A stretch of DNA of 64,000 nt from an uncultured Anaerolineaceae bacterium (lineage in GTDB: Bacteria; Chloroflexota; Anaerolineae; Anaerolineales; UBA11579): assembly GCA_964623375.1 (NCBI GenBank), contig CAZUTS010000002.1:126081-190080 (forward strand), read 5' to 3'. The translations under genes were made by a program, and so were the position numbers. Within the stretch, counting starts at the first letter, position 1; each line of letters starts with the position of its first letter. The notes under the pieces are model-generated. The model saw only the letters and a program-made list of their open reading frames with translations, made no database searches and was not told where the DNA came from. Positions 2,048-19,999 of the stretch are shown in pieces.

Positions 2048-2059
2048 GCGGCCGTGGCC

Positions 2060-2590: not shown

Positions 2591-2605
2591 GTGATGTCCA
2601 AAAAT

Positions 2606-4273: not shown

Positions 4274-4279
4274 GGGGGC

Positions 4280-4285
4280 ATTTTA
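4280..4285 (-). promoter_or_regulatory. -10 box TAAAAT 6 nt upstream of the ATG (4273); leaderless-type promoter
   Basis: Minus strand reads gcTAAAATgcccccATG. Confidence 0.4.
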
Positions 4286-4354
4286 GCATGCGCAGAATTT
4301 GGGCGCATTTGGGTGGCGTGCGGAGAAAAGACGGCGGCGGTTGCGCGGGTGAGT

Positions 4355-4363
4355 GTTAGAATT
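4355..4363 (+). promoter_or_regulatory. Extended -10 (TGtTAGAAT) for the PGM/PMM gene
   Basis: gagTGTTAGAATtt about 41 nt upstream of ATG 4405. 'gaggt' SD-like sequence before the ATG. Confidence 0.4.
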
Positions 4364-4404
4364 TTTGTATCCCCTAGACACATACATCGACGAGGTTCAC
4401 ACAA

Positions 4405-5850
4405 ATGCCCATTCACTTCGGTACAGACGGCTGGCGCGCCGTAATCTCCGATACTTTCACCTTTGCCAACCTGCGTATGGTGGCCCAGGCCATTGCTGAT
4501 GCCATGCGCGCCGACCTGCAAAATGGGAACGGCGCCCAGTCGCCGCTGGTAGTGGTGGGCTTTGATACGCGCTTTCTGTCGGACCGTTTCGCTGGCGATG
4601 TGGCCCGCGTGCTGGCCGCTAACGGATTCAACGTGCTGCTCTCGATGGCGGATGCACCGACCCCGGCCATCTCCTACGCCGTGCGTGAGCACAAGGCCAT
4701 CGGCGGGGTGATGATCACCGCCTCGCACAACCCGCCGCGCTACAACGGCGTCAAGCTCAAGGCCGCTTATGGCGGCTCGGCCCCGCATGAGCTGTGCCAC
4801 CGCGTGGAGATTTACCTGAACGATAACGAAGCGCGCGGCCGCGGCGCCTCGGTAATGGACTTCAAGCAGGCCATCGAGCAAGGCCTGATCACGCGCTTTG
4901 ACCCCATGCCTGCCTACAAGGCGCATTTGGCCACCTTGATTGACTTTGACATCATTCGCAAGCACCCGCAAAAGGTAGTGGTCGATTCGATGTTTGGCTC
5001 CGGCCGTGGCCATATCGCCGCCATGTTGCGCGAGGCTGGCTGCGATGTCGTGGAGATCCGTGGTGACATGAACCCTGGCTTCGGCGGCGTGCACCCTGAG
5101 CCGATCATGCCGCATCTGCAGGCGCTGGCGGATGCCATCGCTGGGCTCCCCGGCTATTTTGGCGTGGCCACGGATGGCGATGCCGACCGCGTGGGGGCGA
5201 TGGACGAAGACGGCGTCTTCGTTGACCCGCACAAGATCATGTCGCTGGCGCTGCGCCACCTGGTGGAGGCACGCGGGCACAAGGGCAAGGTCATCCGCAC
5301 TGTATCCACCACGCGCATGATCGACCGCCTGGCCGCCAAGTACGGCTTGCAGGTGGAGGAGACCCCGGTGGGCTTCAACCACATTGCCGACCATATGCTG
5401 GCGGGCGATGTGCTCATCGGCGGGGAAGAGTCAGGCGGTATCTCGTTCACCGGCCACATCCCCGAAGGGGATGGTGTTCTCATGGGCCTACTGGTGGTGG
5501 AGATGGTGGCGCGCTCCGGCAGCAGCTTGCGTGCCCTGGTGGCCGATCTGCTGGCCAGCGTTGGCCCGGCGCACTACGCCCGCAAGGATCTGCGCTTGAG
5601 CCGCCCGGTAGAGAAGAAGACCATGACCGCCAAGCTCACCGAAGAAGCCCCTGAGTCGATTGGCGGGGAAAAGGTGCTGGAAGTGGTCAGCCGTGATGGC
5701 AGTAAATACATTATGGCGGATGACTCATGGCTGCTCATCCGCCCGTCTGGCACGGAGCCGGTGCTGCGTGTGTATGCCGAAGGACGCACGCCAGAGATGG
5801 TCACGGCGCTGATGGCCTACGGCGAGCAGGTGGCCGCCAGCGTGTCGTAG
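4405..5850 (+). CDS. Phosphoglucomutase/phosphomannomutase family protein
   Basis: 481 aa. Active-site 'TASHNPPRYNGVK', metal loop 'ATDGDADR', 'GGEESGG'. Confidence 0.9.
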   Translation: MPIHFGTDGWRAVISDTFTFANLRMVAQAIADAMRADLQNGNGAQSPLVVVGFDTRFLSDRFAGDVARVLAANGFNVLLSMADAPTPAISYAVREHKAIGGVMITASHNPPRYNGVKLKAAYGGSAPHELCHRVEIYLNDNEARGRGASVMDFKQAIEQGLITRFDPMPAYKAHLATLIDFDIIRKHPQKVVVDSMFGSGRGHIAAMLREAGCDVVEIRGDMNPGFGGVHPEPIMPHLQALADAIAGLPGYFGVATDGDADRVGAMDEDGVFVDPHKIMSLALRHLVEARGHKGKVIRTVSTTRMIDRLAAKYGLQVEETPVGFNHIADHMLAGDVLIGGEESGGISFTGHIPEGDGVLMGLLVVEMVARSGSSLRALVADLLASVGPAHYARKDLRLSRPVEKKTMTAKLTEEAPESIGGEKVLEVVSRDGSKYIMADDSWLLIRPSGTEPVLRVYAEGRTPEMVTALMAYGEQVAASVS

Positions 5851-5885
5851 TGGCGTAGGTAGTGAGCAGTGATACGTAATCAGTA

Positions 5886-5913
5886 AAGGGCGAGGTACTC
5901 CTCGCCCTTTTTA
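5886..5913 (+). terminator. Rho-independent terminator
   Basis: gggcgagg-tact-cctcgccc followed by ttttt, 36 nt after the PGM stop. Confidence 0.75.
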
Positions 5914-5957
5914 TGGTTACTGGTTGCATTGCCATTTGCTGCAAGCCATTTGGCTCT

Positions 5958-6000
5958 CTGTCATTCCGAACGAGGCCGCAGGCCGAGGAGGAATCCGTGA
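5958..6000. repeat. Dispersed 'CTGTCATTCCGA(A/G)CG...GAGGAATCC' element (family B)
   Basis: ctgtcattccgaacgaggccgcaggccgaggaggaatccgtga. Related copies at 32028-32068, 32110-32140 (inverted), 35401-35432 and 36782-36822. Confidence 0.8.
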
Positions 6001-6045
6001 AGGCAGCGTTGCCTATGCATTTGTCTGTCTAGTACAGTGCCAAAG

Positions 6046-6744
6046 TTATGCCAATAACTGAGTCAGATCAAACACTGGCCCATTGGCACAAGCCAACTGC
6101 GCGCGGCGGGCGGTGGCAAAGCTGCACACCCCGCACTGCGCCAGCCCGCCGCACGGCATCGGCGGCGTGATCAGTGCTTGCCCGCTCAGCGTCTTGGGCA
6201 CGCGTTCTTTGAAGCCCAGCAGACCGGGTAGGTCTTCGGCCAGCGCTGGCGGCAGATCCAGCGCTATAAAGTCGGCCCAGGCCAGCGCGGCGGGCAGCGC
6301 CGCCAGCGGTTGCACTTCAATATGGCTGGGCAACTCCCCAAGAGGTTCATCGCAGAATACGGCCACCTCAGCAGCGGACTCGGCCAGCGGCAGCAGGCGG
6401 GTGGCGTTGCGCCTCCAGGCGGCCAAGGCCAGACGCCGCATGTGTGGCGGCAGGCTGAAGCCGCGCCCCAGCGGGCCGCACGCCAACAGCGGCTGCCCCA
6501 GCTGCCAGGCTGGCGGCAGCGCGCCAGCTACGTTAAGCTCTGCAACATTTCCGTTGAGGGTAACAGGCTGCCAGCCAGCGGCGAACAGCTGGCTGGCGAT
6601 CACGGTCTGGCTGTCGGCGGGGTCATGCACTTGTAAGTACTGGCCGGGCCGCGGCAGGGCGGCCAGCGGCAACTGCAGGCGCGCCGCGGCGTTCTGATAC
6701 GGTTCTAACAAGAGGGCGGAAAGGCGCACCGTATAATGACTCAT
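6046..6744 (-). CDS. PyrK-like ferredoxin-reductase-type protein with a C-terminal Cys cluster
   Basis: 232 aa. C-terminal 'MPCGGLAQCGVCSF...ACANGPVF' resembles the PyrK 2Fe-2S motif (CGxGxCxxC...C.dGPVF). The N-terminal FAD motif is not evident. Confidence 0.4.
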   Translation of the reverse strand: MSHYTVRLSALLLEPYQNAAARLQLPLAALPRPGQYLQVHDPADSQTVIASQLFAAGWQPVTLNGNVAELNVAGALPPAWQLGQPLLACGPLGRGFSLPPHMRRLALAAWRRNATRLLPLAESAAEVAVFCDEPLGELPSHIEVQPLAALPAALAWADFIALDLPPALAEDLPGLLGFKERVPKTLSGQALITPPMPCGGLAQCGVCSFATARRAQLACANGPVFDLTQLLA

Positions 6745-6837
6745 AGCTAACTATTGGCATGCTACCATGCCCAATCGCTCGCAACACCTGGGCGCGGTCT
6801 GCCGTTTTAGAGACAACAGTACTCTTGAGGAGGAGTA

Positions 6838-7860
6838 ATGGAACTTGTAAATATTCTTGCCTTCCTATCCGTAGTGGCCTGGATCGTGGTCATTGGCGTG
6901 GTCACCCTGGTGGTGGTGCGCTCGATCCGCACCCGCACAGGCGCTAAAGGCATCGCCAGCAGCGGTCTGATGATTGCCGTCTCCGTCATTGCCGCGGTGC
7001 TCATCAGCACGCTGGCAGCGGGCCTGGTCTTCATTCAGCCCAGTGAGCGCGGTGTGGTCATCAGTGCTACGCAGGGCGGTATTCGTGATGAGGCTTTGCA
7101 GCCCGGTTTGCACTGGGTCGTGCCGTTTGCTGAGAACGTCATCCCCTATACCATCTCGCGCCAGACCTACACCATGTCTGTAGTCCCTGAGGAAAGTGAT
7201 GTCTTCCGTGATGATGCTGTTGAATCACGCACCTCGGATGGGCAGATCGTGCATGTAGATGCCTCAGTGATCTTCTCCATCAAGCCAGAAGAGGTCGTCA
7301 ATGTGCATATTCGTTGGCAGAACCGCTACATCAACGGCATGGTGCGCCCCATCGCGCGTGGCATCATTCGGGACGCGGTGGCACAGTTTGGCATCGAGCA
7401 GGTCTATAGCACGCATCGTCTGGAGCTAACCGAGATGATCTCGGCTGAGCTGCAGCGCCGTTTTGAAATGAACGGTTTGGAGCTGGCAGATTTCGTGGTG
7501 CGTAACATCGCCTTCTCGGCTGAGTATGCTGACTCGGTGGAGCAGAAGCAAATCGCTGAGCAGCAGGCGCAGCAGGCCGCCTTTGTGGTGGAACAGCGCC
7601 GCCAGGAAGCCGAGCAGGCTCGCCAGGTGGCAGAGGGTGTTGCCGATGCGGCCGTCATCCGTGCTCAGGGTGAGGCGGAAGCGCGCCTGATCCAGGCGGA
7701 GGCTGAGGCCGAAGCGCTGCGCATGCTGGCCGAGGCGATTGCCCAGAACCCGGACATTTTGACCCTGGAGTACATCCAGAAGCTGGCGCCGAATATCCAG
7801 GTGATGTTGGTGCCAACGGATAATCCCTTCCTTCTGCCCTTGCCGAGCACCAACCCCTAA
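6838..7860 (+). CDS. SPFH/Band 7 (prohibitin/HflC-like) membrane protein
   Basis: 340 aa. N-terminal TM, 'ERGVVISATQGG...LQPGLHWVVPF' SPFH core, Ala/Glu/Gln-rich coiled coil. GAGGAGG RBS. Confidence 0.85.
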   Translation: MELVNILAFLSVVAWIVVIGVVTLVVVRSIRTRTGAKGIASSGLMIAVSVIAAVLISTLAAGLVFIQPSERGVVISATQGGIRDEALQPGLHWVVPFAENVIPYTISRQTYTMSVVPEESDVFRDDAVESRTSDGQIVHVDASVIFSIKPEEVVNVHIRWQNRYINGMVRPIARGIIRDAVAQFGIEQVYSTHRLELTEMISAELQRRFEMNGLELADFVVRNIAFSAEYADSVEQKQIAEQQAQQAAFVVEQRRQEAEQARQVAEGVADAAVIRAQGEAEARLIQAEAEAEALRMLAEAIAQNPDILTLEYIQKLAPNIQVMLVPTDNPFLLPLPSTNP

Positions 7861-7883
7861 GCGGGTAGCTCATAACAACCAAA

Positions 7884-7908
7884 GGCCAGCCGCGAGGCTG
7901 GCCTTTTT
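7884..7908 (+). terminator. Rho-independent terminator
   Basis: ggccagcc-gcga-ggctggcc followed by ttttt. Confidence 0.75.
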
Positions 7909-7922
7909 GTTGGCTGAATATC

Positions 7923-7938
7923 TATGATATAAATCATA
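7923..7938. promoter_or_regulatory. Fur-box-like palindrome TATGAT-ATAA-ATCATA in the A/T-rich ferritin upstream region
   Basis: Perfect 6-4-6 inverted repeat within the A/T-rich stretch 7915-8000. Resembles the core of the GATAATGATAATCATTATC Fur consensus. Confidence 0.35.
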
Positions 7939-8030
7939 ATAAATATAAGGAGATTTTGAATTTAGTTGGTTTTAATTATCAACTAGGTTGAAAATATGGT
8001 AGACTGATGGCCACACGAAAAGGAGCAAAA

Positions 8031-8546
8031 ATGTTAATTAGCAAAACGCTTGAAAAAGCGATCAATGAACAAGTAGGGCGTGAATTTGGCGCCGCAATGC
8101 AGTACGTCAACATCGCTTCCTACTTCACGGCCGAGAACATGCTCATGTTCGGCAAGCTGTTCTTCGAGCAGGCTGCCGAAGAGAATGCCCACGCCATGAA
8201 GTTTGTGCGCTACGTCTTGGATGCGGGCGGCACCATCGGTGTGCCGGCCATCCCTCAGGCGCGCGCTGATTTCAAAACCCCCGAGGATGCTGTGGGAGCG
8301 GCCCTGCAATGGGAAGAAGAAGTCACGCGCCAGATCAACGCCCTGATGGATATTGCCGTCACGGAGAAAGACTACATCGCCCAGGAATTCCTGGGCTGGT
8401 TCGTCAACGAACAGCTGGAGGAAGTCTCCAAGATGAGCACTATTCTCAGCGTGATCGAGCGTTCGAATGGCAACCTGCTGTTGGCCGAACAATACGTGCA
8501 GAGCACGCTGGCGGATATCGAATCCGTTGAAGGCGGAGCGAAGTAA
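8031..8546 (+). CDS. Ferritin (non-heme, Ftn-type)
   Basis: ATG 8031 preceded by AAAGGAG. 'LEKAINEQVGREFGAAMQYVNIASYF...EENAHAMKF...ALQWEEEVT' ferroxidase-centre pattern. Confidence 0.9.
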   Translation: MLISKTLEKAINEQVGREFGAAMQYVNIASYFTAENMLMFGKLFFEQAAEENAHAMKFVRYVLDAGGTIGVPAIPQARADFKTPEDAVGAALQWEEEVTRQINALMDIAVTEKDYIAQEFLGWFVNEQLEEVSKMSTILSVIERSNGNLLLAEQYVQSTLADIESVEGGAK

Positions 8547-8577
8547 CGCAATCTGGAATGCAAGTTGTATAATGCAA

Positions 8578-8602
8578 CTGTTAGCTGTTAGCTGTTAGCT
8601 AG
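8578..8602. repeat. Short tandem heptamer (gctgtta)x3
   Basis: ctgttagctgttagctgttagctag. Similar low-complexity 'agct/gatt' strings occur in other intergenic regions (22920-23010, 35200-35290, 35500-35530, 36730-36940). Confidence 0.6.
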
Positions 8603-8610
8603 TTTAGACA

Positions 8611-8636
8611 ACTGAATACTCTTCGGTGGCAGGTGC
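8611..8636 (+). repeat. Partial duplicate of the 5' end (P1/P2 5' strands) of the downstream FMN riboswitch
   Basis: actgaatactcttcggtggcaggtg (8611-) versus actaaatactcttcggggcagggtg (8698-). Followed by hairpins 8640-8657 and 8653-8679, not by the rest of an aptamer. Confidence 0.6.
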
Positions 8637-8702
8637 GCAGCTTCGCTGTGCGGGCGTTTCGAAAAATCACGAAACGCCATGCTGCCGGGTTTATACAACT
8701 AA

Positions 8703-8892
8703 ATACTCTTCGGGGCAGGGTGATTACGCATCGATAGCCAAAGCGGTGGAGTTTGCGTAGCAAACTCCATTAGCAGCGGCGCCAGCCGCTGCGTAAAATT
8801 CCCGATCGGTGGTACAGCCCACGAGCGCTCCATGAGCGCAGGATCCGGTGAAACTCCGGGGCCGACGGTATAGTCCGGATGAAAGAAGACGC
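8703..8892 (+). promoter_or_regulatory. FMN riboswitch (RFN element) with a 73-nt insertion in L2
   Basis: Matches the RFN consensus blocks: ctcttcggggcagggtga[..]aattcccgatcggtggtacagcccacgagcg ... ggatccggtgaaactccggggccgacggtatagtccggatgaaagaag. Confidence 0.88.
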
Positions 8893-8970
8893 GGAGTTCG
8901 AAGACTCCGCAAGGCAAGTGGCCTGCTTTTACGCAAGCTGCTGGCCTGCGCATTGTGCGTAGCTCTTTCT

Positions 8971-9006
8971 ATGCCCCAAAAGCATTTGCTTTTGGGGCAT
9001 TTTGTT
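8971..9006 (+). terminator. Intrinsic terminator 1 of the riboswitch expression platform
   Basis: atgccccaaaagca-tt-tgcttttggggcat (14-bp perfect stem) followed by tttgtt. Confidence 0.75.
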
Positions 9007-9046
9007 GGAGCGCGTGCCACGTGCTGTTTGTGCTATGCACAATCCA

Positions 9047-9082
9047 CAGCCCCGATGGATTCTATCGGGGCTGTTTTGTTTT
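9047..9082 (+). terminator. Intrinsic terminator 2 (tandem)
   Basis: cagccccgat-ggattct-atcggggctg followed by ttttgtttt, 20 nt before ATG 9103. Confidence 0.7.
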
Positions 9083-9102
9083 GCGAGAGGTTGCAAGTAC
9101 GT

Positions 9103-9909
9103 ATGAAACGTAGTCGAGATCACAAGGGGATGCATGCTGGGTTACTGGCTCTGCTGACGGCTGCTGTGGCCTTGCTGGCCTGGGAGCTGGTGGTGCGTGT
9201 TTCCCAGCTGCCCGCCTTCATTTTGCCCGGCCCGGGTATCGTGTGGGCGCGGCTGCTGACTGCACTGGCCGATGGCAGCCTACTGCGCCACTTGTGGGTC
9301 ACTCTGCAAGAGGTGCTGCTCGGTCTGGCTCTCGGCACGCTAGTGGCCAGCCTGCTGGGATACTGGTTGGCGCGCTCGCCGCGCTGGGAACGTTTGCTGG
9401 CCCCATTCGTGGTGGCCAGCCAATCGGTGCCTATCGTGGCGCTGGCGCCGCTGCTGGTGATCTGGTTCGGGCCCGGTTTGCTCTCCAAGACGCTCATCTG
9501 CGCACTCATCGTTTTCTTCCCTATCCTTATCAACACCATCATTGGCCTCAAGAGCGTGCCGCAGGACTTGCGTGACCTGATGCGCTCCTTGCAGGCCAGC
9601 CGTGCGCAGACCCTGTGCCTGCTCGAGCTGCCCGCCGCGCTGCCCGTGCTGCTGGGCGGGCTGCGTATCGGCGCTACGCTCTCGGTCATTGGCGCGGTGG
9701 TGGGCGAGCTGGTGGGCGCTGACCGCGGCCTGGGCTTCCTCATCAACGTCGGCCGCGGCCAGTACGACACGGCGCTCGTCTTTGTGGCCGTGTTCGCTTT
9801 AGTTGCTATGGCTTTGCTGCTGTACGGCTTGGTTGTGCTGGCGGAGCGCCGCTGGTTATGGTGGCAACAAAAATCCAATTCACTCTCATTATTTTCTGGA
9901 GAACAATGA
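9103..9909 (+). CDS. ABC transporter permease, NitT/TauT (BPD_transp_1) family; candidate riboflavin importer permease (RibX-like)
   Basis: In-frame ATG at 9103, downstream of the terminators; the track ORF start at 8848 would run through the riboswitch. Multi-TM. Downstream of the FMN riboswitch. Confidence 0.75.
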   Translation: MKRSRDHKGMHAGLLALLTAAVALLAWELVVRVSQLPAFILPGPGIVWARLLTALADGSLLRHLWVTLQEVLLGLALGTLVASLLGYWLARSPRWERLLAPFVVASQSVPIVALAPLLVIWFGPGLLSKTLICALIVFFPILINTIIGLKSVPQDLRDLMRSLQASRAQTLCLLELPAALPVLLGGLRIGATLSVIGAVVGELVGADRGLGFLINVGRGQYDTALVFVAVFALVAMALLLYGLVVLAERRWLWWQQKSNSLSLFSGEQ

Positions 9910-11045
9910 AAAACTCTGATTCACTCACTGTCTTTGCGAGCCGCTTTACGGCGAAGCAATCCCCAATTGGGATTGCAAGACAGGCTTGGGGATTATGCAA
10001 TCTAAGATTGCTTCGTCCGTTTGCCGCAAGCGGCAATACTCCTCGCAATGACAAAGCTCCTAGACGCGCTACCCGTGTGACTTTAACCCTGATCGCGGCT
10101 AGCTTGCTGTTGGCCGCCTGTGGCGCAACGGCTGCACCAGCGGGGCCGGTGGAAACTATCCGCCTGCCGATGGGATACATTCCCAACGTACAGTACGCAC
10201 CGTTCTATGTTGCCGTTGAGCGCGGGTACTTTGCCGAGGCAGGCTACGCCATTGAGTTTGACTACAGCTTCGAAACAGATGGCGTGGCTTTAGTGGGCGC
10301 GGGCCAGCTACCCTTTGCGGTCGTCTCCGGCGAGCAGGTACTGCTCGGCCGTGCGGCAGGTTTGCCCATCGTCTATGTGGGCGCGTGGTACCAGGAGTTT
10401 CCGGTGGCTGTGGTGGCGATGGCGGACAGTGGCATCAGCGCCCCACAGGATCTCAAAGGCGCGCGCATTGGCCTGCCCGGCCTGTTCGGCGCTACCTACA
10501 TCGGCCTGCGTGCGCTGTTGAGCCAGCGCAGCATTCTCGAAGCCGATGTGCAGCTCGATTCGATTGGCTTCAATCAAGTGCAGGCGCTGGCCGCCGGGCA
10601 AGAAGATGCCGTGGTGGGCTACGTCAACAATGAGCCTATCCAGCTAGAGGCCCAAGGCTACGACGTCACCGTGCTGCACGTGGCCGATTATGTGGACCTG
10701 GCTGCCAATGGCATCCTCACCAACGAGAGCATGCTGGCTGAGCAGCCTGAGCGCGTGCGCGGCTTTGTGCGTGCCTTCCTGCGCGGCCTGGCCGACACCA
10801 TTGCTGACCCTGAGGCCGCGTACCAGATCTCCACAAAATACGTAGAAGGGCTGGCCGCGCTGGACAAAGACACCCAGATGGCCGTGCTGACCCTATCCAT
10901 TGAATCGTGGCAGGCCGAGCCGCTGGGTTACTCCAGCCCGCAAGCCTGGGAGAACATGCACGCCGTGTTGCTGGAGATGGGCATGCTGACCCAGCCGCTG
11001 GATGTGAGCGCCGCCTTCACCAACGAGTACCTGCCGGCTGACTAA
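9906..11045 (+). CDS. ABC substrate-binding lipoprotein, NMT1/THI5/ThiY-like; candidate riboflavin-binding RibY-like
   Basis: ATGA overlap with the permease stop and GGAG RBS. Lipobox 'LLLAAC'. 'GYIPNVQYAPFYVAVERGYF' is typical of NMT1/ThiY-type SBPs. Confidence 0.7.
   Translation: MKNSDSLTVFASRFTAKQSPIGIARQAWGLCNLRLLRPFAASGNTPRNDKAPRRATRVTLTLIAASLLLAACGATAAPAGPVETIRLPMGYIPNVQYAPFYVAVERGYFAEAGYAIEFDYSFETDGVALVGAGQLPFAVVSGEQVLLGRAAGLPIVYVGAWYQEFPVAVVAMADSGISAPQDLKGARIGLPGLFGATYIGLRALLSQRSILEADVQLDSIGFNQVQALAAGQEDAVVGYVNNEPIQLEAQGYDVTVLHVADYVDLAANGILTNESMLAEQPERVRGFVRAFLRGLADTIADPEAAYQISTKYVEGLAALDKDTQMAVLTLSIESWQAEPLGYSSPQAWENMHAVLLEMGMLTQPLDVSAAFTNEYLPAD
9928..10056. repeat. Composite family-A repeat (unit, spacer, inverted unit) lying in frame inside the 5' end of the SBP gene
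   Basis: ctgtctttgcgagccgctttacggcgaagcaatcccc ... gattgcttcgtccgtttgccgcaagcggcaatactcctcgcaatgacaaag. Same architecture as 35295-35388. Confidence 0.8.
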
Positions 11046-11806
11046 TGCCTGCTGCCAAGACCGCTCCCTTGCTTTCGGTAGAGAAGCTCTCGGCCAGCTT
11101 TGCTGACCGCACGGGCCAGCTCTCCGTGCTGCGCAACGTGACTTTCAGCGTGCCGCGCGGCCAGTTCCTGTGCGTGCTCGGCCCGTCTGGCTCGGGCAAG
11201 AGCACGCTGCTGCGCCTCTTGGCGGGCTTGTTGCCCGCCAACCGCGGCCGCATTCACTTCGCTGGCCAGCCTGTGGACGGCGCACAGGCTGGGGTGGGGC
11301 TAGTGTTCCAGGACGCCAACCTGATGCCCTGGCGCACCGCGCTCGATAACGTGGCCCTACCGCTGGAGCTGCGCAATGACCCTGATGCGATCGACCGTGC
11401 CTGGGACATGCTGCAGCTCGTCGGCTTGCAGGGTTTTGAGCAGGCGCTGCCCAGCCAACTTTCCGGCGGTATGGCGCAACGCGTGGCGATTGGCCGCGCC
11501 TTGGTGCAAGACCCGCAGCTGCTGCTGCTGGACGAGCCGTTTGGCTCGTTGGATGCGCTCACGCGCGAGAAGATGGGCGAGGAGCTGCTGCGCATCTGGG
11601 AGCTGGAGCACAAGACGGTGGTGATGGTCACGCATGACATCAACGAGGCGCTCTACCTTGCGGACCGCGTGCTGGTGCTCGGCAAGCGCCCGGCCAGCAT
11701 CAAGCTGGATATGCCTGTCAGCCTGGCGCGCCCGCGCCGCCCCGAGCTGCGCTATTCGCCCGCCTTTGGGCGCATGGCGGCGCAATTACGCGCAGCCATC
11801 GAATAG
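11045..11806 (+). CDS. ABC transporter ATP-binding protein (NitT/TauT family)
   Basis: 253 aa. 'GPSGSGKSTLL', 'LSGGMAQRVAIGRAL', 'LLLLDEPFGSLD'. TAATG overlap with the SBP stop. Confidence 0.9.
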   Translation: MPAAKTAPLLSVEKLSASFADRTGQLSVLRNVTFSVPRGQFLCVLGPSGSGKSTLLRLLAGLLPANRGRIHFAGQPVDGAQAGVGLVFQDANLMPWRTALDNVALPLELRNDPDAIDRAWDMLQLVGLQGFEQALPSQLSGGMAQRVAIGRALVQDPQLLLLDEPFGSLDALTREKMGEELLRIWELEHKTVVMVTHDINEALYLADRVLVLGKRPASIKLDMPVSLARPRRPELRYSPAFGRMAAQLRAAIE

Positions 11807-11843: not shown

Positions 11844-12368
11844 ATGAGCAGCACAAGTCTTGCACAGCCTCTACCCACCGGTCTCGGCAACAAGAAGTTC
11901 ATCATCGGTGGTGTGCTCATCCTGGCCGCGGTGGTTTATCTGATTATTAGCTCTACCGCTGCAGGCGCTCAATTCTTCTTCACAATTGACGAACTTAACG
12001 AGCGCGGCAGCGAAGCTGTGGGCAAACCCGCCCGCGTGGCTGGCGCCGTGCTGGGTGACACGATTGAGTACGACCCTGAAACGCTCACCCTGACCTTCAC
12101 CATGGTGCACATGCCCGCCGATACCCGCCTCATCAACGATGACGGCGGCTTGGCCAAGGCGCTGTACGAAGCCGTGAACGACCCCACGCGTGCCCGCTTG
12201 CAGGTGCAGTATGTGGGCGTCAAGCCTGATTTGCTGGCCCATGAGGTGGAAGCCATTGTGGCGGGCAAACTGGGCGAGGATGGCATGTTCTACGCCGACG
12301 AGAACGGTTTGCTGCTGCGCTGCCCCACGCGCTATGAAGAGGCTTTGCCTGCCCAGGCCGGCGAATAG
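11844..12368 (+). CDS. ccmE: Cytochrome c maturation heme chaperone CcmE, CxxxY variant
   Basis: 174 aa from ATG 11844. N-terminal TM. 'VQYVGVKPDLL...IVAGKL' aligns to E. coli '[23 protein letters not shown]'. 'LLRCPTRY' sits in place of 'LAKHDENY'. Confidence 0.8.
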   Translation: MSSTSLAQPLPTGLGNKKFIIGGVLILAAVVYLIISSTAAGAQFFFTIDELNERGSEAVGKPARVAGAVLGDTIEYDPETLTLTFTMVHMPADTRLINDDGGLAKALYEAVNDPTRARLQVQYVGVKPDLLAHEVEAIVAGKLGEDGMFYADENGLLLRCPTRYEEALPAQAGE

Positions 12369-12389
12369 CCTTCTCAACCCCAACGTACA

Positions 12390-14501
12390 ATGATTGCAGA
12401 TCTTGGTTTCTTTGCGCTGCTGGTGGCTTTCCTGCTGGCGCTGTATGCCTGCGTGGCTGCTGCCGTAGGGCACTGGCGTAAGCAGCAACGCTGGGTTAGC
12501 AGTGCGCGTGCTGCCGCCATGCTCGGTTTCCCGCTGCTCACCGTAGCGTGTGCCAGCTTGGTCTATTCGCTGGTCACTCTTGATTTCCACTTGCAGTACG
12601 TCACCCAGGTGAGCAGCCACAGCATGCCGCTCTACCTGCGTGCTACCGCGTTGTGGGGTGGGCAGGCCGGCTCGCTGCTCTTCTGGTCCTGGCTGATGGC
12701 CGCCTTCACCTTTGCCGTCATGCTGCGTGAATGGCGGCGTGATCGTGACCTGCAGCCGTGGGTCATCATCGTCACCTCCGCCACGTTGGCCTTCTTCCTG
12801 ACGCTCATCCTCTTCTTTGAGAATCCCTTCCTGCGCTACTGGCAGGGCATCACTGGCACGGTGTGGACGGCGATGTGGCAGCCCGCAGGCGCCCAGGCGT
12901 ACATCCCCATGGACGGCAACGGCCTCAATCCGCTGCTACGCCACCCGGGCATGATCATTCACCCGCCCATGCTGTATATCGGCTTTGTGGCCTTTGTGGT
13001 GCCGTTCGCTTTCGCCATCGCTGCCCTGGTCACCGGGCGCAGCGATGACCGCTGGATCCGTGTCACGCGCCGCTGGACGCTGATCGCCTGGCTGTTCCTC
13101 TCGCTCGGCCTGATCCTGGGCAGCCGCTGGGCCTACGATGTGCTGGGCTGGGGCGGCTACTGGGGCTGGGACCCGGTGGAGATCGCTGCGTTCATGCCCT
13201 GGCTCACCGGCACGGCCTTTTTGCATTCGGTGATGATCCAGGAGAAGCGCGGCATGTTCAAGCACTGGAACATGCTGCTCATCATCTTGACCTATTGTCT
13301 GGTCATCTTCGGCACCTTCCTCACACGTTCGGGGGTGCTGTCGTCTGTGCACGCCTTTGCGCAAAGCGCCATCGGGCCGATGTTCTTTGGCTTCATAGCG
13401 CTCACTTTCATCATTTCGCTGGCGCTGCTCAATAAGCGCTGGGGCACGTTGAGATCCGAAGTGGAGATGACCTCGCTGCTCTCACGCGAGTCGCTCTTCC
13501 TTATAAATAATCTGCTCTTCATGGGCATTCTGCTGATCTGCTTCTGGGGCGTAGTTTTCCCTATCGTGAGCGAAGCCAGCGGCGGCATTGGCCGCGCCAT
13601 CCCCGCCCTGGCGCACATTTTTACCGGGCAGCGCGCCACGGTTGGCCCCATCTTCTATGAGAGCGCCACCGGCCCGCTGTGGGCGGCCTTGCTGCTGCTG
13701 ATGGGCGTGGCCCCCTTGGCCGCCTGGCGCGCCTCCACGGCGCGCACGCTGGGGCGCGCCATCTGGAAGCCCTTCATCGTCTCGCTGGTGGTGCTGGCTG
13801 GCATGCTGCTGGGCGGCATGCGCAACGCGCTGGGCTTGCTCTCGCTGTGGATCTGTGCGTTTGTGCTGCTGGTGACCGTCTACGAGTTCTGGCGCGGCGC
13901 GCAAGCTCGCGTGAACCGTGGCGAGACCCCCTTACAGGCTTTCTGGCGCCTGATTGGCCGCAACCGCCGCCGCTATGGCGGCTATATCATTCACCTCGGC
14001 GTAATCCTTATCGCGGTGGGCATTATTGGTATTGAGCTCTTCCAGCAAGAGACGCAGGGCAGCCTGGCTGTGGGCGAGCGCATGCACCTGGGCAGCTACA
14101 GCGTGGAGTACGAATCACTAGCGGAGTTTGAAACGCCGGATGGCCGTTTGGTGGACCGCGCCGTGGTCAACGTCTACAAAGACGGGGCGTACCTGACCCA
14201 GCTCTACCCACGGCGTGACTTCTATTACGAATCACAGCAAGCCATGACCATTCCCGGCTTGCGCAGCACCGTTGAGAACGATGTGTACATCCTGCTGGTG
14301 GATTGGGAAGTGGTGAGCGCCAGCAGCGCCACCTTCAAAGTGTATGTCAATCCGCTGGTGAATTGGATCTGGTACGGCGGCTTTGTCTTCATCTTCGGCA
14401 CGCTGGTCGCTTCGTGGCCGGATGCCGAGCTGCGCCCGGCGCGCCAACGCGTGCGCGCCAGCAGCAACGCGAGGCGGGCTAGCAATGTGGAGCGCGCATG
14501 A
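12390..14501 (+). CDS. ccmF: Cytochrome c-type biogenesis protein CcmF (heme lyase)
   Basis: 703 aa polytopic. WWD motif 'WGGYWGWDPVE'. Confidence 0.9.
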   Translation: MIADLGFFALLVAFLLALYACVAAAVGHWRKQQRWVSSARAAAMLGFPLLTVACASLVYSLVTLDFHLQYVTQVSSHSMPLYLRATALWGGQAGSLLFWSWLMAAFTFAVMLREWRRDRDLQPWVIIVTSATLAFFLTLILFFENPFLRYWQGITGTVWTAMWQPAGAQAYIPMDGNGLNPLLRHPGMIIHPPMLYIGFVAFVVPFAFAIAALVTGRSDDRWIRVTRRWTLIAWLFLSLGLILGSRWAYDVLGWGGYWGWDPVEIAAFMPWLTGTAFLHSVMIQEKRGMFKHWNMLLIILTYCLVIFGTFLTRSGVLSSVHAFAQSAIGPMFFGFIALTFIISLALLNKRWGTLRSEVEMTSLLSRESLFLINNLLFMGILLICFWGVVFPIVSEASGGIGRAIPALAHIFTGQRATVGPIFYESATGPLWAALLLLMGVAPLAAWRASTARTLGRAIWKPFIVSLVVLAGMLLGGMRNALGLLSLWICAFVLLVTVYEFWRGAQARVNRGETPLQAFWRLIGRNRRRYGGYIIHLGVILIAVGIIGIELFQQETQGSLAVGERMHLGSYSVEYESLAEFETPDGRLVDRAVVNVYKDGAYLTQLYPRRDFYYESQQAMTIPGLRSTVENDVYILLVDWEVVSASSATFKVYVNPLVNWIWYGGFVFIFGTLVASWPDAELRPARQRVRASSNARRASNVERA

Positions 14502-14971
14502 AGCGGCTCGGCCTCTTGTTTGCGTTGAGCCTGCTGTTGGCCGCCTGTGCTGGCAGCCCGGCGGCAATTCAGTCTGCGCAGCAGGGTAGTGCTCCAAGCG
14601 CAGATCGGGTCAATGCGGTTGCCAAGAACCTGTACTGCCCGGTGTGCGCCAACGTGCCGCTGGATGTGTGCGGCACGGCGGCCTGTGTCCAGTGGCGCGG
14701 CCAGATCGCTGAGCTGCTTGCCGAAGGCTACAGCGAGCAGCAAGTCTATGACTATTTTGCCGCCCAGTACGGCCAGGGCGTGCTGGCGCTGCCGCCGGCG
14801 CGTGGCCTGAACTGGCTGGTCTATCTCATTCCCCCGCTGGGTATTGGCGTGGCCGCACTCTTCCTTGGGCGCAACCTCAAACGCTGGAAGCAGCCTGCGG
14901 CCACCAGCCAGACGAAGCTCGATGATGACTATGCGCGCAAGCTTGAAGAAGAGCTCGAGGCGCGCCGGTAA
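14498..14971 (+). CDS. ccmH: Cytochrome c biogenesis protein CcmH/NrfF family
   Basis: 157 aa. Signal peptide 'LLLAAC', 'LYCPVCANVPLDVC' (CxxC). 'QIAELLAEGYSEQQVYDYFAAQYG' aligns to the E. coli CcmH N-domain. C-terminal TM. Confidence 0.8.
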   Translation: MKRLGLLFALSLLLAACAGSPAAIQSAQQGSAPSADRVNAVAKNLYCPVCANVPLDVCGTAACVQWRGQIAELLAEGYSEQQVYDYFAAQYGQGVLALPPARGLNWLVYLIPPLGIGVAALFLGRNLKRWKQPAATSQTKLDDDYARKLEEELEARR

Positions 14972-14976
14972 CGGTA

Positions 14977-15522
14977 ATGACTGAAAACAAGAAACCTGTA
15001 TCCATTGTAGGGCGCGTGCTGGCCTGGGGTCTGCTGTTGGCCTTGCTAACCCTGGTGGCCATCCAACTGCGCAGCTCGCTGCAAGGTATCCTGACGCGCG
15101 GTGAGCAGGCGCCGGCCTTCACGCTCACCACCTTTGACGGCCAGACTGTGCGCAGCGAGGATTTGCTCGGCAAAGTCGTGCTGCTCAATATCTGGGCCTC
15201 GTGGTGTGCGCCCTGTATCGAAGAAGCTGCTCATCTGGAGCAGGCCTGGCAGCATTATAAGGACCGCGGCGATGTGGTCTTCCTCGGTTTGGCCTATGTG
15301 GACACTGAAAAAGAATCGCTGGCCTTTATTGAGGAGCACAATATCACCTACCTGAACGGGCCAGACCTCGGCACTACCATTTACACCGCTTTCCGGGCGC
15401 GTGGTGTGCCGGAGACCTTTGTCATCAACAAATATGGTGAGATTGCCTCGGTCAAGATCGGGCCATATCTCTCTGTTGAAGAAATCACCACGGTCATTGA
15501 CCGTTTGCTTGAGCTTGAATAA
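14977..15522 (+). CDS. Thiol:disulfide oxidoreductase, TlpA/ResA/CcmG (DsbE) family
   Basis: 181 aa. N-terminal TM, 'WASWCAPC' thioredoxin motif, 'GVPETFVI'. Confidence 0.85.
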   Translation: MTENKKPVSIVGRVLAWGLLLALLTLVAIQLRSSLQGILTRGEQAPAFTLTTFDGQTVRSEDLLGKVVLLNIWASWCAPCIEEAAHLEQAWQHYKDRGDVVFLGLAYVDTEKESLAFIEEHNITYLNGPDLGTTIYTAFRARGVPETFVINKYGEIASVKIGPYLSVEEITTVIDRLLELE

Positions 15523-15917
15523 TGGATCTCGGTTCACTACTCCTGTTTGTCGCGCTGCTGGTCATTTGCGCGCTGTACGTCGCCCGCCCGCTGCTCTCTG
15601 AGGCTGATGAGGACATCAGCCCTGAACTAGCCAACCTGCAGGCTGAGCACGCCCGTGTGCTGGAAGCCTTGCTGGAGCTGGATGCGGACTGGGAACTGGG
15701 CAAAGTGCCTGAGGAGATCTACCACCCCCAGCGCCAGCAACTGCTGGCCGAGGGTGCGGCCGTTTTGCGTGCCCTTGAAAAAGTGGATGTGGATACAGTG
15801 CCTGCCGCCAGCCAGCCGGCGGATGCCGATGAGCTCGAAGCCATGATCGCCAGCTACCGCAAACAGGCCAAGAAGACTTCCAAGCCAGCGCCCAAGAAGG
15901 GCGGGCGCAAGAAGTGA
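15522..15917 (+). CDS. Small membrane protein, CcmI/CycH N-terminal-like, with a polybasic tail
   Basis: 131 aa. N-terminal TM, then 'LDADWELGKVPEEIYHPQRQQL' (CcmI-like juxtamembrane helix). C-terminal 'KQAKKTSKPAPKKGGRKK'. Confidence 0.45.
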   Translation: MDLGSLLLFVALLVICALYVARPLLSEADEDISPELANLQAEHARVLEALLELDADWELGKVPEEIYHPQRQQLLAEGAAVLRALEKVDVDTVPAASQPADADELEAMIASYRKQAKKTSKPAPKKGGRKK

Positions 15918-17617
15918 GCCGCCGCATAGCAATATTGCTCCTGCTGGCGTTGGCGCTCAGCGCTTGCGAATTCTCGCTGGCCGGGGATGTAACCCCACCG
16001 CCGGATGCCATCATCAGCGGTGCGGAGAGCACGCCCGTGCCGGTGGAGTATCCGCCGGCGCCCGCAGACCCGATCGCTGGCGCTTTACTGTACGCGCAGA
16101 GCTGTGCGCCGTGCCACGGCGATAACGGCCGCGGCGATGGCCCCCAGGCCAACATGCTGCCTGTGCAGCCTGTGCCGATTGGCGTGAGTGAGCGCGCTGA
16201 TGCCGCCACGCCGGCCAACTGGTATCTGGCGATCACCCAGGGCAACCTGGATAACTTTATGCCCCCGTTTGTCAACCAACTCAGCTTGCAGCAGCGCTGG
16301 GATGTGCTCGCCTATGTCTATTCGCTCAGCCAGGATTCGTTGGCGGCCGAAGGCGGCGAGCAACTCTATACTGAGTACCAGGCGGCTGTGCAGGCCGCAC
16401 TGCCGCTGGCCGATATTCGCCAGATGGCCGGCTACAGCCGCAATGACATCCTGGCCGCCGTCGAGCCGGCTGTGCCCAGCCTGTCTTCGGCACAGCTGCT
16501 GGCGCTGACCTCGTACCTGCAAGCTATTTCGCTCGGTACACCGCCGCAACAGGCTCCCTCTGCTGAGGAGGAGAGCGCCCTCGGCAGCTTCCGTGGCCAG
16601 GTGGAAGACGGCACGGATGGCGAGCTGGCGGCCGGTTTGCAGGCGACCTTGTTTGGCTATGATGGCCAGACGCTGGCCTACACGGATGCAGTGAGCGTGG
16701 GCGCAAACGGCCGCTTCGCCTTTGATGCTGTGCCGCTGGGCGAAGGGCGCACTTTCTTTGCCTCGGTGGATTACTTGGGGCTGAGCTACTTCTCTGAATT
16801 TCTCGCCGATGGGCAAACCGAGTTTGAACATCCCATCACGGTCTACGAAACCACGCAGGACACCAGTCAGTTGGCCGTGGAGCGGCTGACCCTGATCCTG
16901 GAATTCGACACGCCCGGCTTTGTGCGCGTGGTGCAACAGTACCTGGTCTCCAATATCGGCACGCATGCTGTCACCCCGAATGCGGATGGCACACCGGTGC
17001 TGCTGTTCGACCTGCCGAGTGAAGCTACGGAGCTGGCCTTCAACGAGGGCCTCTTCGGCGAGCGTTACCTGCCCAGCGAGGGCGGCTTTGGTGACCTGCG
17101 TGCCATCCTGCCCGGCATGCAGAGCTACCAGTTGCTCTATGCCTACCAGATGCCCTATACGCGCAGCCTTGAGCTGCCGCTGAGTTTCAACATGCCAGCC
17201 CGCTCGGTAGTGGTGCTGGTGCAAGACAGTGATGTCACTTTGCACAACACAGACTTCAGCGAGATCGGCTCGCAAGAGATTGACGGCACCACCTACACTG
17301 CCTACCTTTCCAACCAGCCTTATTCTGTGGATGAGCAGCCCGAGTTGCAGCTGCGCGGCCGCAACCCGGCGGGCGGCGGCGGCTTGCAGGCCGTGCTGGC
17401 CAGCGACAATGTGGTCATCGGCCTGGCGGCGCTCACCGTGGCGGTAGGCTTGCTGTGGCTGTGGCTGCGCCGCATGCAGGCCGGGCCGGACCAGTTGCTG
17501 GCGCAGATCACGCGCCTGGATGAACGCTTTGCCCGCGGCGACATGGCCGAGAATGCGTACAAGCGCCAGCGTGCTGCCCTCAAGGCCCAACTGCGCCGCA
17601 GTGTAAAAGGTAAATGA
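15914..17617 (+). CDS. Membrane-tethered mono-heme c-type cytochrome lipoprotein with a beta-rich middle domain
   Basis: 567 aa. Lipobox 'LALSAC', heme motif 'CAPCHG', C-terminal TM 'VVIGLAALTVAVGLLWLWL' followed by 'LDERFARGDMAENAYKRQRAAL'. Confidence 0.7.
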   Translation: MSRRIAILLLLALALSACEFSLAGDVTPPPDAIISGAESTPVPVEYPPAPADPIAGALLYAQSCAPCHGDNGRGDGPQANMLPVQPVPIGVSERADAATPANWYLAITQGNLDNFMPPFVNQLSLQQRWDVLAYVYSLSQDSLAAEGGEQLYTEYQAAVQAALPLADIRQMAGYSRNDILAAVEPAVPSLSSAQLLALTSYLQAISLGTPPQQAPSAEEESALGSFRGQVEDGTDGELAAGLQATLFGYDGQTLAYTDAVSVGANGRFAFDAVPLGEGRTFFASVDYLGLSYFSEFLADGQTEFEHPITVYETTQDTSQLAVERLTLILEFDTPGFVRVVQQYLVSNIGTHAVTPNADGTPVLLFDLPSEATELAFNEGLFGERYLPSEGGFGDLRAILPGMQSYQLLYAYQMPYTRSLELPLSFNMPARSVVVLVQDSDVTLHNTDFSEIGSQEIDGTTYTAYLSNQPYSVDEQPELQLRGRNPAGGGGLQAVLASDNVVIGLAALTVAVGLLWLWLRRMQAGPDQLLAQITRLDERFARGDMAENAYKRQRAALKAQLRRSVKGK

Positions 17618-18318
17618 TCCAGGTCAAGAATCTCAGCAAGCGTTTTGGTTACCGTATGGCGCTGCACGGAGTAGATCTGCACGTACGCCGTGGGGAAGTG
17701 GTGGCCCTGCTCGGCCCCAATGGGGCGGGCAAGAGCACGCTGCTGCGCATTCTGGCCGGGCTGGCACAACCCACCGCCGGCCGCGTGCAGGTGGACGGCT
17801 GCCTGCTGCCACAGCAGGCGGCGGCCGCCCGCGCCCAGCTCGGTTACCTGGGCCACCAACCGCTTTTATATGATGACCTGACCGCTGACCAAAACCTGGA
17901 TTTCTTTGCACGCCTCTATAACGTACCCGCACCTGCAGAGCGCATTACTGAACTGCTGGAACTGGTAGCGCTGGACCACCGCCGCCGTGAAGCCGTGCGC
18001 GGCTTCTCACGCGGCATGCAGCAGCGCCTGGCGCTGGCGCGTGCGCTGTTGCACCGCCCACGCGTGCTGCTGCTGGATGAGCCGCACAGCGCTCTGGATC
18101 TGCAGACCGCTGATCTGCTGGATGAGGTTCTGCGCGCCGAAGCGCGTGCTGGCGCCAGCATCCTCATCGCCAGCCATGACCTGGGGCGGGTAGGTGGCCT
18201 GGTGCAGCGCGCTGAGCTGCTGGCCGATGGCCGCATCGCCGCCACCCTGCCTAAGGCCAAGCTGGGCGGCAAGCTGCCCGCGCATTATGAGAGGGCGCTC
18301 GAGGCTGCCAATGGCTAG
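17614..18318 (+). CDS. ccmA: Heme exporter ATP-binding protein CcmA
   Basis: 234 aa. 'GPNGAGKSTLL', 'FSRGMQQRLALARAL', 'LLLDEPHSALD'. Position directly upstream of ccmB/ccmC. Confidence 0.8.
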   Translation: MIQVKNLSKRFGYRMALHGVDLHVRRGEVVALLGPNGAGKSTLLRILAGLAQPTAGRVQVDGCLLPQQAAAARAQLGYLGHQPLLYDDLTADQNLDFFARLYNVPAPAERITELLELVALDHRRREAVRGFSRGMQQRLALARALLHRPRVLLLDEPHSALDLQTADLLDEVLRAEARAGASILIASHDLGRVGGLVQRAELLADGRIAATLPKAKLGGKLPAHYERALEAANG

Positions 18319-18985
18319 CTTCGTCTCCGCCGTCTGGGCCATCCTGCGCAAAGACCTGGCCGCCGAATGGCGCAGCCGCCAACTGGTCACCGCCATGCTG
18401 GTCTTTGTGGTGCTGGTCATCTTCATCTTTGCTTTCACGCTGGATATTGACACGCTCACCCGCCGCCAGATCGCCGCCGGCGTGCTGTGGACCACCTTTG
18501 CCTTCGCCGGCACCCTGGGGCTCAACCGCACCCTGGCCAGCGAGGGCGAGCGCGGCTCGCTGGATGGCCTGTTGCTGGCCCCGGTGGAGCGCAGCGCCAT
18601 CTACTTTGGCAAAACCCTGGCGAACTTATTTTTCATGCTGGTTGTGGAAATTTTCACGCTGCCGCTTTATGCTGTTTTCTACGATATGAACCTGGCACAG
18701 CCCGGCCTGTGGTTGGTGCTACTGCTGGGTTCGTGGTGCTTTTGCAGCGTGGGCACACTGTTGGCGGCCATGGCTGCCCAAGCCCGCAGCCGTGAACTGC
18801 TGCTGCCGGTGCTATTGTTCCCGCTGGTGCTGCCCGTGCTGGTATCCGCAGTGCGTGCCAGCAGCGCCTTTCTTAACGGCCTGGGTTTGGAGTACGCTCT
18901 GCCCAGCCTGAACATTTTGATCGCGTACGGCATCATCATGCCCGCCCTGGGCTTTATGGTTTTTGATTTCATTGTGGAGGAGTAG
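18311..18985 (+). CDS. ccmB: Heme exporter protein CcmB
   Basis: Start ATG 18311 (8-nt overlap with ccmA). 6-TM protein. 'SEGERGSLDGLLLAP' resembles the CcmB signature. Confidence 0.8.
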   Translation: MASFVSAVWAILRKDLAAEWRSRQLVTAMLVFVVLVIFIFAFTLDIDTLTRRQIAAGVLWTTFAFAGTLGLNRTLASEGERGSLDGLLLAPVERSAIYFGKTLANLFFMLVVEIFTLPLYAVFYDMNLAQPGLWLVLLLGSWCFCSVGTLLAAMAAQARSRELLLPVLLFPLVLPVLVSAVRASSAFLNGLGLEYALPSLNILIAYGIIMPALGFMVFDFIVEE

Positions 18986-18991
18986 TTTTAC

Positions 18992-19708
18992 ATGGCATCA
19001 ACTTCGTTAGACCGCAAGCCGCGCGCCTTGCATGCGCTGGACATTGTGTCCGCCCTGCTGATGGCGGCCACTATTTACATGGTGCTCTTCTATGCGCCTA
19101 CCGAGCGCGTGATGGGGCAGGTGCAACGCCTGTTTTACCTCCACGTGGCCAGCGCCTGGGTCAGTATGGCTGTGCTGATCCTCGCTGCTATTCTCGGCAT
19201 CGTGTATCTCGTTCGCCCGCAGAACAAGATCGATATCTGGGCCGTGGCCTGCATTGAGCTCGGCCTGGTGTACGCTTTCATCTGCGTCACCACCGGTGCC
19301 ATCTGGGCGCGCCCGGCCTGGAACACGTGGTGGACCTGGGATCCGCGTGTGGTGACCTTCACCATCCTCATTCTGGTCTACCTGGCTTATATGCTGCTGC
19401 GCCAGGGCATTGAAGACCCGCAGCGCCGTGCTCGCTTCGGCGCCATCTACGCCATCATGGCTTCGGTGACCGTGCCGCTGACCTATTTCTCGATCCGCAT
19501 TTGGCGCACCCTGCACCCGGTGGTGATCGGCAGTGGCGATCCCAGCGCACAGGGCACCTTTGACATGACGCGCCCCATGCTGCACACCCTGCTGTTCAGT
19601 CTGCTGGCTTTCAGCATTTTCGGCTTCACCTTGCTGTGGCACCGTGTGCGCCTGGGCTGGCTGGCCGATAGGGTAGAGCAACTGCGCATGAAGGCCCTGG
19701 GCCGCTAG
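18992..19708 (+). CDS. ccmC: Heme exporter protein CcmC
   Basis: 238 aa. WWD motif 'WARPAWNTWWTWDPRV'. Confidence 0.85.
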   Translation: MASTSLDRKPRALHALDIVSALLMAATIYMVLFYAPTERVMGQVQRLFYLHVASAWVSMAVLILAAILGIVYLVRPQNKIDIWAVACIELGLVYAFICVTTGAIWARPAWNTWWTWDPRVVTFTILILVYLAYMLLRQGIEDPQRRARFGAIYAIMASVTVPLTYFSIRIWRTLHPVVIGSGDPSAQGTFDMTRPMLHTLLFSLLAFSIFGFTLLWHRVRLGWLADRVEQLRMKALGR

Positions 19709-19717
19709 GAGAGAGAC

Positions 19718-19999
19718 ATGCCCATTGAAACCACCAACTACATGCTGCTCGGCTTTGCCGTAGCTTTCATCACTATTGGATTACATCTGGTGAGCTTCCC
19801 GCTGCGCACGCGCAACCTCAAGGCCGATCTGCAAGCGTTGGAGACCGTACCCAAGGCCAGCGCCAAAGCGACTGGCAAGAAGGTAGCTGCCAAGAAGGCC
19901 GCGCCCAAAAAGACGGCGAAGAAGGCTGCGAAGAAAGTAGCTAAGAAGACGGCCAAGAAAACTGCCAAGAAAACTGCTAAGAGGACAGCCCGCCGTTAG
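19718..19999 (+). CDS. CcmD-like single-TM protein with a long Lys/Ala-rich (AKKT)n tail
   Basis: 93 aa. TM 'YMLLGFAVAFITIGLHLVSF' immediately after ccmC. Tail 'KKVAAKKAAPKKTAKKAAKKVAKKTAKKTAKKTAKRTARR' is encoded by 12-nt tandem repeats. Confidence 0.5.
   Translation: MPIETTNYMLLGFAVAFITIGLHLVSFPLRTRNLKADLQALETVPKASAKATGKKVAAKKAAPKKTAKKAAKKVAKKTAKKTAKKTAKRTARR

Follow-up and report, generated by a model that had tools for sequence, protein, structure and literature searches.

A Ccm operon encoding CcmH together with a predicted cysteine-type CcmE in an Anaerolineales bacterium

The ccm operon and its gene products

In the window, that is, the whole 64-kb stretch of DNA analysed here, one tightly packed ten-gene operon was found at 11844-19999, in which several start and stop codons overlap. 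The genes of this operon, together with two features within ccmE, are as follows:

11844-12368, + strand: ccmE, 174 aa; PF03100, E=1.9e-17 over residues 43-166
12108-12194, + strand: insertion of about 29 residues (89-117) in the OB fold of CcmE, located by alignment, hmmalign insertion counts and the AF2 model
12321-12335, + strand: C-P-T-R-Y motif, Cys160-Tyr164 of CcmE
12390-14501, + strand: ccmF, 703 aa, unsplit; PF01578 and PF16327
14498-14971, + strand: ccmH, 157 aa, Ccl2-type; PF03918, E=1.1e-22
14977-15522, + strand: ccmG-like gene for a TlpA/ResA-family thiol:disulfide oxidoreductase; AhpC-TSA/Redoxin/Thioredoxin_8
15522-15917, + strand: orf131, a small membrane-anchored helical ORF (131 aa) with no Pfam match
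15914-17617, + strand: cytochrome c, 567 aa, with one CAPCH heme motif; Cytochrome_CBB3/Cytochrom_C
17614-18318, + strand: ccmA, ABC ATPase; TIGR01189, 152 bits (cutoff, 131.6)
18302-18985, + strand: ccmB, ABC membrane subunit; PF03379, E=2.4e-33; start codon approximate
18992-19708, + strand: ccmC, WWD protein loading CcmE with heme; PF01578
19718-19999, + strand: ccmD-like small single-pass ORF, named for its position and architecture

The ccmE gene starts with an ATG codon at 11844, and its product is a member of the Pfam CcmE family, scoring 63.9 bits against PF03100 (cutoff, 24.6). None of the NCBIfam CcmE equivalog models attained its cutoff with this protein, and these models evidently miss this lineage. 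CcmF contains the WWD domain (motif WGGYWGWDPVE), the CcmF_C domain and four histidines, two being b-heme ligands and two flanking WWD; in a pairwise alignment, its H191, H279, H321 and H535 were aligned with H173, H261, H303 and H491 of E. coli CcmF, respectively. The start of ccmH overlaps the stop of ccmF by 4 nt. The CcmH protein, which has no fused TPR/CcmI domain, scored 80.3 bits against PF03918 (cutoff, 25) and shows the CcmH/Ccl2 layout of a periplasmic CxxC followed by a transmembrane helix. Its redox motif, L-Y-C47-P-V-C50, is kept in 76 of 76 copies, and LYCPVC is aligned with LRCPKC of PDB 2kw0/2hl7, while the C-terminal hydrophobic stretch LNWLVYLIPPLGIGVAALFLG is aligned with the transmembrane helix of the E. 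coli protein.

Two further cysteines, C58 and C63 ('DVCGTAAC'), are present in CcmH, the region from C47 to C63 being encoded at 14636-14686. All 76 Anaerolineae copies have them, as does the Chloroflexota locus L083, whereas CcmH of E. coli and of P. aeruginosa does not. A structural disulfide may link them, or they may serve as a further redox pair. The four cysteines of Anaerolineae CcmH are new here and mildly interesting.

The ccmG-like gene was kept in all 72 loci reaching it. Its product carries the motif W-C77-A-P-C80, and its matches to the ResA and DsbE subfamilies were under cutoff. No CcdA/DsbD homologue was found in the 64-kb window by tblastn with two Chloroflexota CcdA/DsbD queries, and the supplier of reductant must therefore be encoded elsewhere. 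In other Chloroflexota ccm clusters, CcdA/DsbD adjoins the TlpA-like gene.

The product of orf131, composed of an N-terminal transmembrane helix and a helical region, is likewise kept in 72 of 72 loci. Its match to the CcmI model TIGR03142 was marginal (E=0.078), and it may be a relative of the N-terminal portion of CcmI. Orthologues of orf131 end in an FCPxCG zinc ribbon, which is missing in the window copy and in that of its nearest relative (121 aa, L089). In CcmH-less Chloroflexota clusters, an ORF with a transmembrane segment and a zinc ribbon lies directly after ccmF.

The 567-aa cytochrome is the sole plausible CXXCH protein in the window, and a monoheme cytochrome gene lies inside the ccm operon in all 66 loci reaching it. 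This protein is likely a substrate or an accessory protein, perhaps dedicated or lineage-specific. Its C-terminal ~270 residues (16799-17608) share 28% identity with an ORF that is not a cytochrome but takes the corresponding place in the operon of locus L084. Among the remaining genes, the ccmC product matched TIGR01191 (ccmC) with E=3e-37, under the cutoff of the model. The ccmD-like ORF was detected in 42 loci and had no CcmD family match in Pfam or NCBIfam at E up to 10; in other Chloroflexota clusters, the corresponding place after ccmC is taken by small ORFs (46-61 aa). The 93-aa product in the window consists of a single transmembrane helix and a Lys/Ala-rich, histone-H1-like tail (AKKTAKKAAKKVAKKTAKK...).

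A first-pass annotation, made from the letters of the window, had described a clear CcmH/NrfF homologue, a TlpA/CcmG protein and a CcmABC(D) set in the order E-F-H-G...A-B-C-D. The family matches listed above agree with this description, with CcmD-like assigned by position only, and for CcmH the alignment with 2kw0/2hl7 points the same way.

Outside the operon, the upstream region 851-11806 is syntenic with positions 1-9937 of L089 (JGI metagenome contig 3300048589; CcmE 92% identical) and encodes an SMC_N ATPase, a cNMP-binding protein, a phosphoglucomutase, a Band_7 protein and an NMT1-type ABC transporter. This synteny assigns the window to an Anaerolineales lineage that is uncultured. Downstream, at 21551-22918, lies an ORF of 455 aa, in which an IS200-like Y1 transposase domain (PF01797, E=5e-8) was recognised in the C-terminal ~115 residues, and the N-terminal ~330 residues have no family match.

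A cysteine at the position of CcmE's heme-binding histidine

When CcmE chains in the PDB were searched with the single sequence by phmmer, only the OB-fold core was aligned and the alignment ended before the motif; a profile alignment was therefore used instead. An HMM was built from 21 CcmE sequences (the window protein and 20 orthologues), and E. coli K-12 CcmE, taken from NC_000913, was aligned to it. In this alignment, 'adelllrCptrY' of the window protein lies opposite 'akevlakHdenY' of E. coli, so that Cys160 (TGC, 12321-12323) corresponds to His130 and Tyr164 (TAT, 12333-12335) to Tyr134, which in E. coli serve in covalent heme attachment and as an axial ligand, respectively. The replacement of His130 by Cys160 with the tyrosine retained had previously been read from an alignment by eye, and the profile reproduces its register.

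The AlphaFold (AF2) model of CcmE (mean pLDDT 75) has a helix at residues 15-41, beta strands within 62-159 and a low-confidence, disordered tail at 164-174. The protein is anchored in the membrane by its N-terminus, and comprises in addition an OB-fold beta-barrel and a flexible C-terminal tail bearing C160-P-T-R-Y164. A Foldseek search with this model returned CcmE structures as the top four PDB matches (8ce8_E, 1lm0, 1j6q and 1sr3), and CcmE of D. vulgaris (2kct) was also among the PDB matches. As judged from its sequence, the window CcmE is a Cys-type (System I*-type) chaperone, having Cys at the His130 position followed by xxx-Tyr.

The cysteine is strictly conserved. It is present in 120 of the 120 best homologues, all of which end in [KR]-C-P-T-R-Y. 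In a profile search over 1.84 billion cluster representatives, which gave 2260 matches, the best 150 were inspected; the motif column was covered by 98 of these, with Cys in 98 and His in none, and C...Y was found in 91 and C...F in 4 of them. Among the best 80 GTDB species of Anaerolineae, Cys was present in all 80, within CPTRY (40 species), CPTKY (39) or CPSKY (1). In these species the cysteine is encoded by TGC (52) or TGT (28) and the tyrosine by TAC (48) or TAT (32); the use of both synonymous codons shows that it is the amino acids Cys and Tyr that are under selection. The first-pass annotation had allowed that the cysteine might prove not to be conserved in orthologues, which these counts contradict, or that a histidine elsewhere, such as His133 in 'LLAHEVE', might occupy the heme-binding position. 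His133 was rejected as the true heme ligand, since orthologues have D or K there. An artefact of sequencing or assembly was rejected as well, because two other, independent assemblies encode an identical CcmE protein, and a fully syntenic 44-kb contig carries a CcmE that is 92% identical.

The insertion at residues 89-117 is absent from E. coli CcmE and from more distant Cys-CcmEs, and was modelled by AF2 as a pair of short helices. It is among the best-conserved parts of CcmE, with the pattern GGLA..AL..A..D..R: G101, G102, L103, A104, A106, L107, A110, D113 and R116 are invariant, and H89, P91, A92 and D93 are near-invariant, His89 being kept in at least 90% of the sequences of the insertion-bearing clade. 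This conserved 29-residue insertion in an Anaerolineae clade is new here and, like the cysteines of CcmH, mildly interesting.

CcmH beside cysteine-type CcmE in Chloroflexota and in the literature

The best 80 GTDB loci from the profile search are all from Anaerolineae and include those of the isolates Thermanaerothrix daxensis and T. solaris and of MAGs that carry the labels Brevefilum fermentans and Longilinea sp. In all 75 loci that extend beyond ccmF, ccmH follows it immediately, and these 75 Anaerolineae loci, which are of sufficient length for the comparison, all share the syntenic order E-F-H-G-orf-cytc-A-B-C-(D). Ten further Chloroflexota loci, whose Cys-CcmE has no insertion, were inspected, with CcmH checked by a six-frame HMM search. 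In one of them (L083), CcmH-CcmG is located 9 kb downstream. Five (L084, L087, L092, L093 and L094) have the arrangement E-F(-Zn-ribbon-X)-A-B-C-D without CcmH, three have E-cytc-A-B-C-D-DsbD-TlpA, and one has E-A-B only. The co-occurrence of a CxxxY CcmE with CcmH, pointed out for the window by the first-pass annotation, therefore extends to all 75 informative loci with insertion-bearing CcmE but, within 10 kb, to only 1 of the 10 with insertion-less CcmE, a comparison (80 Anaerolineae loci, L002-L081, against L082-L088 and L092-L094) that is small in sample, phylogenetically confounded and based on neighbourhoods rather than whole genomes. Both states, with and without CcmH beside Cys-CcmE, occur in Chloroflexota.

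System I* was first defined by Allen et al. 2006 as having a Cys-CcmE with CcmH absent from the genome, and archaea and Desulfovibrio are described as having no CcmH. The window, with CcmH encoded at 14498-14971, falls outside this definition. The group's own later review (Stevens et al. 2011, FEBS J 278:4170, PMC3601427) dropped the absence of CcmH as a criterion. According to its passage on these proteins, which draws on more genomes, the main holders of Cys-CcmE are delta-proteobacteria, with chloroflexi and firmicutes also represented; CcmH is present in about one-third of Cys-CcmE bacteria, and most of the motifs (25 of 36) read CPSKY. The earlier statement that the variant System I lacks CcmH thus reflects what was written in 2006 but is superseded by the 2011 survey. 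Profile searches aimed at Cys-CcmEs of Desulfobacterota, archaea and Firmicutes gave matches among which only Chloroflexota were listed, and the cross-phylum figure of one-third therefore rests on Stevens et al. 2011. Within the literature searched, CcmH and Chloroflexi appeared together in the context of Cys-CcmE only in that review, and no biochemically studied Cys-CcmE system including CcmH was found in the papers that could be searched.

Heme delivery through Cys160 and comparison with known systems

We consider the operon in the window to be an ordinary System I/Ccm operon of an Anaerolineales bacterium with a Cys-type chaperone, to which we assign a probability of roughly 0.85. The role and chemistry of Cys160 are inferred from work on D. 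desulfuricans, whose CcmE is reported to bind heme covalently, and on M. acetivorans, in which the CcmE C120A mutation is reported to abolish both heme-stainable holo-CcmE and cytochrome maturation. By analogy, CcmC, the CcmAB ATPase and the CcmD-like peptide would present heme to membrane-anchored CcmE, which would hold it via Cys160, probably through a thioether to a heme vinyl group, with Tyr164 as an axial ligand. After ATP-dependent release, holo-CcmE would dock on CcmF with its four histidines and WWD domain, while the CcmG-like thioredoxin would keep the CXXCH motif of the apocytochrome reduced. CcmF and CcmH (CPVC), with the CcmG-like protein, would then act as the synthetase that transfers heme to apocytochromes. 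This scheme assumes that heme bound to Cys160 is compatible with CcmF/H here. The H130C variant of E. coli CcmE is reported to bind heme with transfer to CcmFH blocked (cited in PMC9084895); it can be presumed, therefore, that a natural Cys-CcmE which works with CcmF/H has adaptations that compensate for this.

The step of this scheme most open to another explanation is the covalent one. For CcmE of D. vulgaris, a review (PMC3884852) cites non-covalent binding of ferric heme via C127, which makes covalent attachment at Cys160 uncertain, and a heme-Cys thioether is described as chemically hard to reverse (Stevens et al. 2011). Cys160 might accordingly be a non-covalent or purely axial ligand, or a different residue, e.g., the well-conserved His89, might participate in binding the heme, with handover proceeding without a thioether intermediate. 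Against the non-covalent alternative stand the covalent adduct of D. desulfuricans and the C120A phenotype of M. acetivorans, and since the insertion containing His89 is missing from most Cys-CcmEs, this residue cannot be a general ligand. We regard this alternative as unlikely. A less probable one still concerns the partners of CcmE. The best NCBIfam matches of CcmF and CcmH carry nrfE and nrfF names (TIGR00353, TIGR03145 and TIGR03147), as would be expected if the pair were an NrfE/NrfF-type lyase for an unusual motif, e.g., CXXCK, and the Cys-CcmE system proper were without CcmH. All of these scores, however, are far under the trusted cutoffs: TIGR00353 gave 425.8 bits on CcmF, under its cutoff, TIGR03145 gave 390 against 927 and TIGR03147 gave 35.9 against 159, so that neither protein belongs to the NrfE or NrfF family by these models. 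The pair is also flanked immediately by ccmE and ccmG; the operon is translationally coupled and its own cytochrome has CAPCH, and neither an NrfA-like gene, a credible CXXCK cytochrome nor a second CcmF was found in the 64-kb window. On scores and context, the NrfEF reading was rejected as very improbable.

The first-pass annotation had regarded the locus as a hybrid between the canonical and variant systems. In terms of gene content this wording is fair, as the window does combine both feature sets, and the message of Allen et al. 2006, with CcmH missing in archaea and Desulfovibrio, would make such a combination appear to be a new maturation system. It is not anomalous, however, nor is it new. 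About one-third of Cys-CcmE bacteria having CcmH, with chloroflexi listed among the Cys-CcmE bacteria, is already on record from 2011, and the arrangement is found in 75 of 75 Anaerolineae loci and also in the insertion-less lineage L083. A previously unrecognised hybrid of System I (with CcmH) and System I* (with Cys-CcmE) is thus the least credible of these alternatives, and we give it hardly any weight. The combination of Cys-CcmE and CcmH in the window is lineage-typical and ordinary. It is also doubtful that the Anaerolineae operon, with its 29-residue helical insertion in Cys-CcmE and its four-cysteine CcmH, constitutes a distinct sub-variant of System I, although the association of the insertion with an in-operon ccmH (75/75 loci against 1/10) counts in favour of this. 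If the insertion did enable the handover of Cys-linked heme to CcmF/H, the operon would be a natural system to probe the role of CcmH, and would also suit asking how the heme-Cys adduct of CcmE is resolved.

The ordinary Ccm operon that we favour has little novelty as a discovery, the Cys-for-His CcmE being a known variant and its pairing with CcmH being standard in Anaerolineae. Its residual value is that of a model in which a natural Cys-CcmE is accompanied by complete CcmF/H/G, and which could serve to examine CcmH function and the chemistry by which heme is released from cysteine, because E. coli H130C fails with CcmFH and the Cys-CcmE systems studied so far (Desulfovibrio and Methanosarcina) are without CcmH.

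Compared with System I of E. coli (CcmABCDEFGH), all functional classes are found in the window, the CcmD-like ORF by position. The window operon differs from it in having Cys where E. coli CcmE has His130, in a CcmH with two additional cysteines and without a fused TPR (CcmI) domain, and in the gene order E-F-H-G-x-cytc-A-B-C-D. With the System I* CcmEs of D. desulfuricans, D. vulgaris (2KCT) and Methanosarcina acetivorans, the window CcmE shares the PF03100 OB fold and the tail K/R-C-P-[ST]-[KR]-Y, and all 98 of its nearest cluster representatives reaching the motif (among the best 150) are of the Cys type. Unlike these, it has CPTRY rather than the majority motif CPSKY and contains the conserved 29-residue insertion in the OB fold, and its operon carries CcmH and a CcmG-like protein. 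In archaeal System I*, moreover, CcmF is split as CcmF1/F2, whereas it is unsplit in the window. The bacteria with Cys-CcmE and CcmH noted by Stevens et al. 2011 have exactly the same combination as the window. They are treated there in a single paragraph, with neither lists of genes nor operon structures nor experiments, and the Anaerolineae insertion, the four-cysteine CcmH and the operon order are not described in it. The CcmH-less clusters of Chloroflexota (L084, L087, L092, L093 and L094) are unlike the window in having no ccmH after ccmF and a CcmE without the 29-residue insertion, but they resemble it in the succession of Cys-CcmE, CcmF, a small transmembrane/zinc-ribbon ORF, a protein of ~300-570 aa and CcmA-B-C-D, the backbone being the same.
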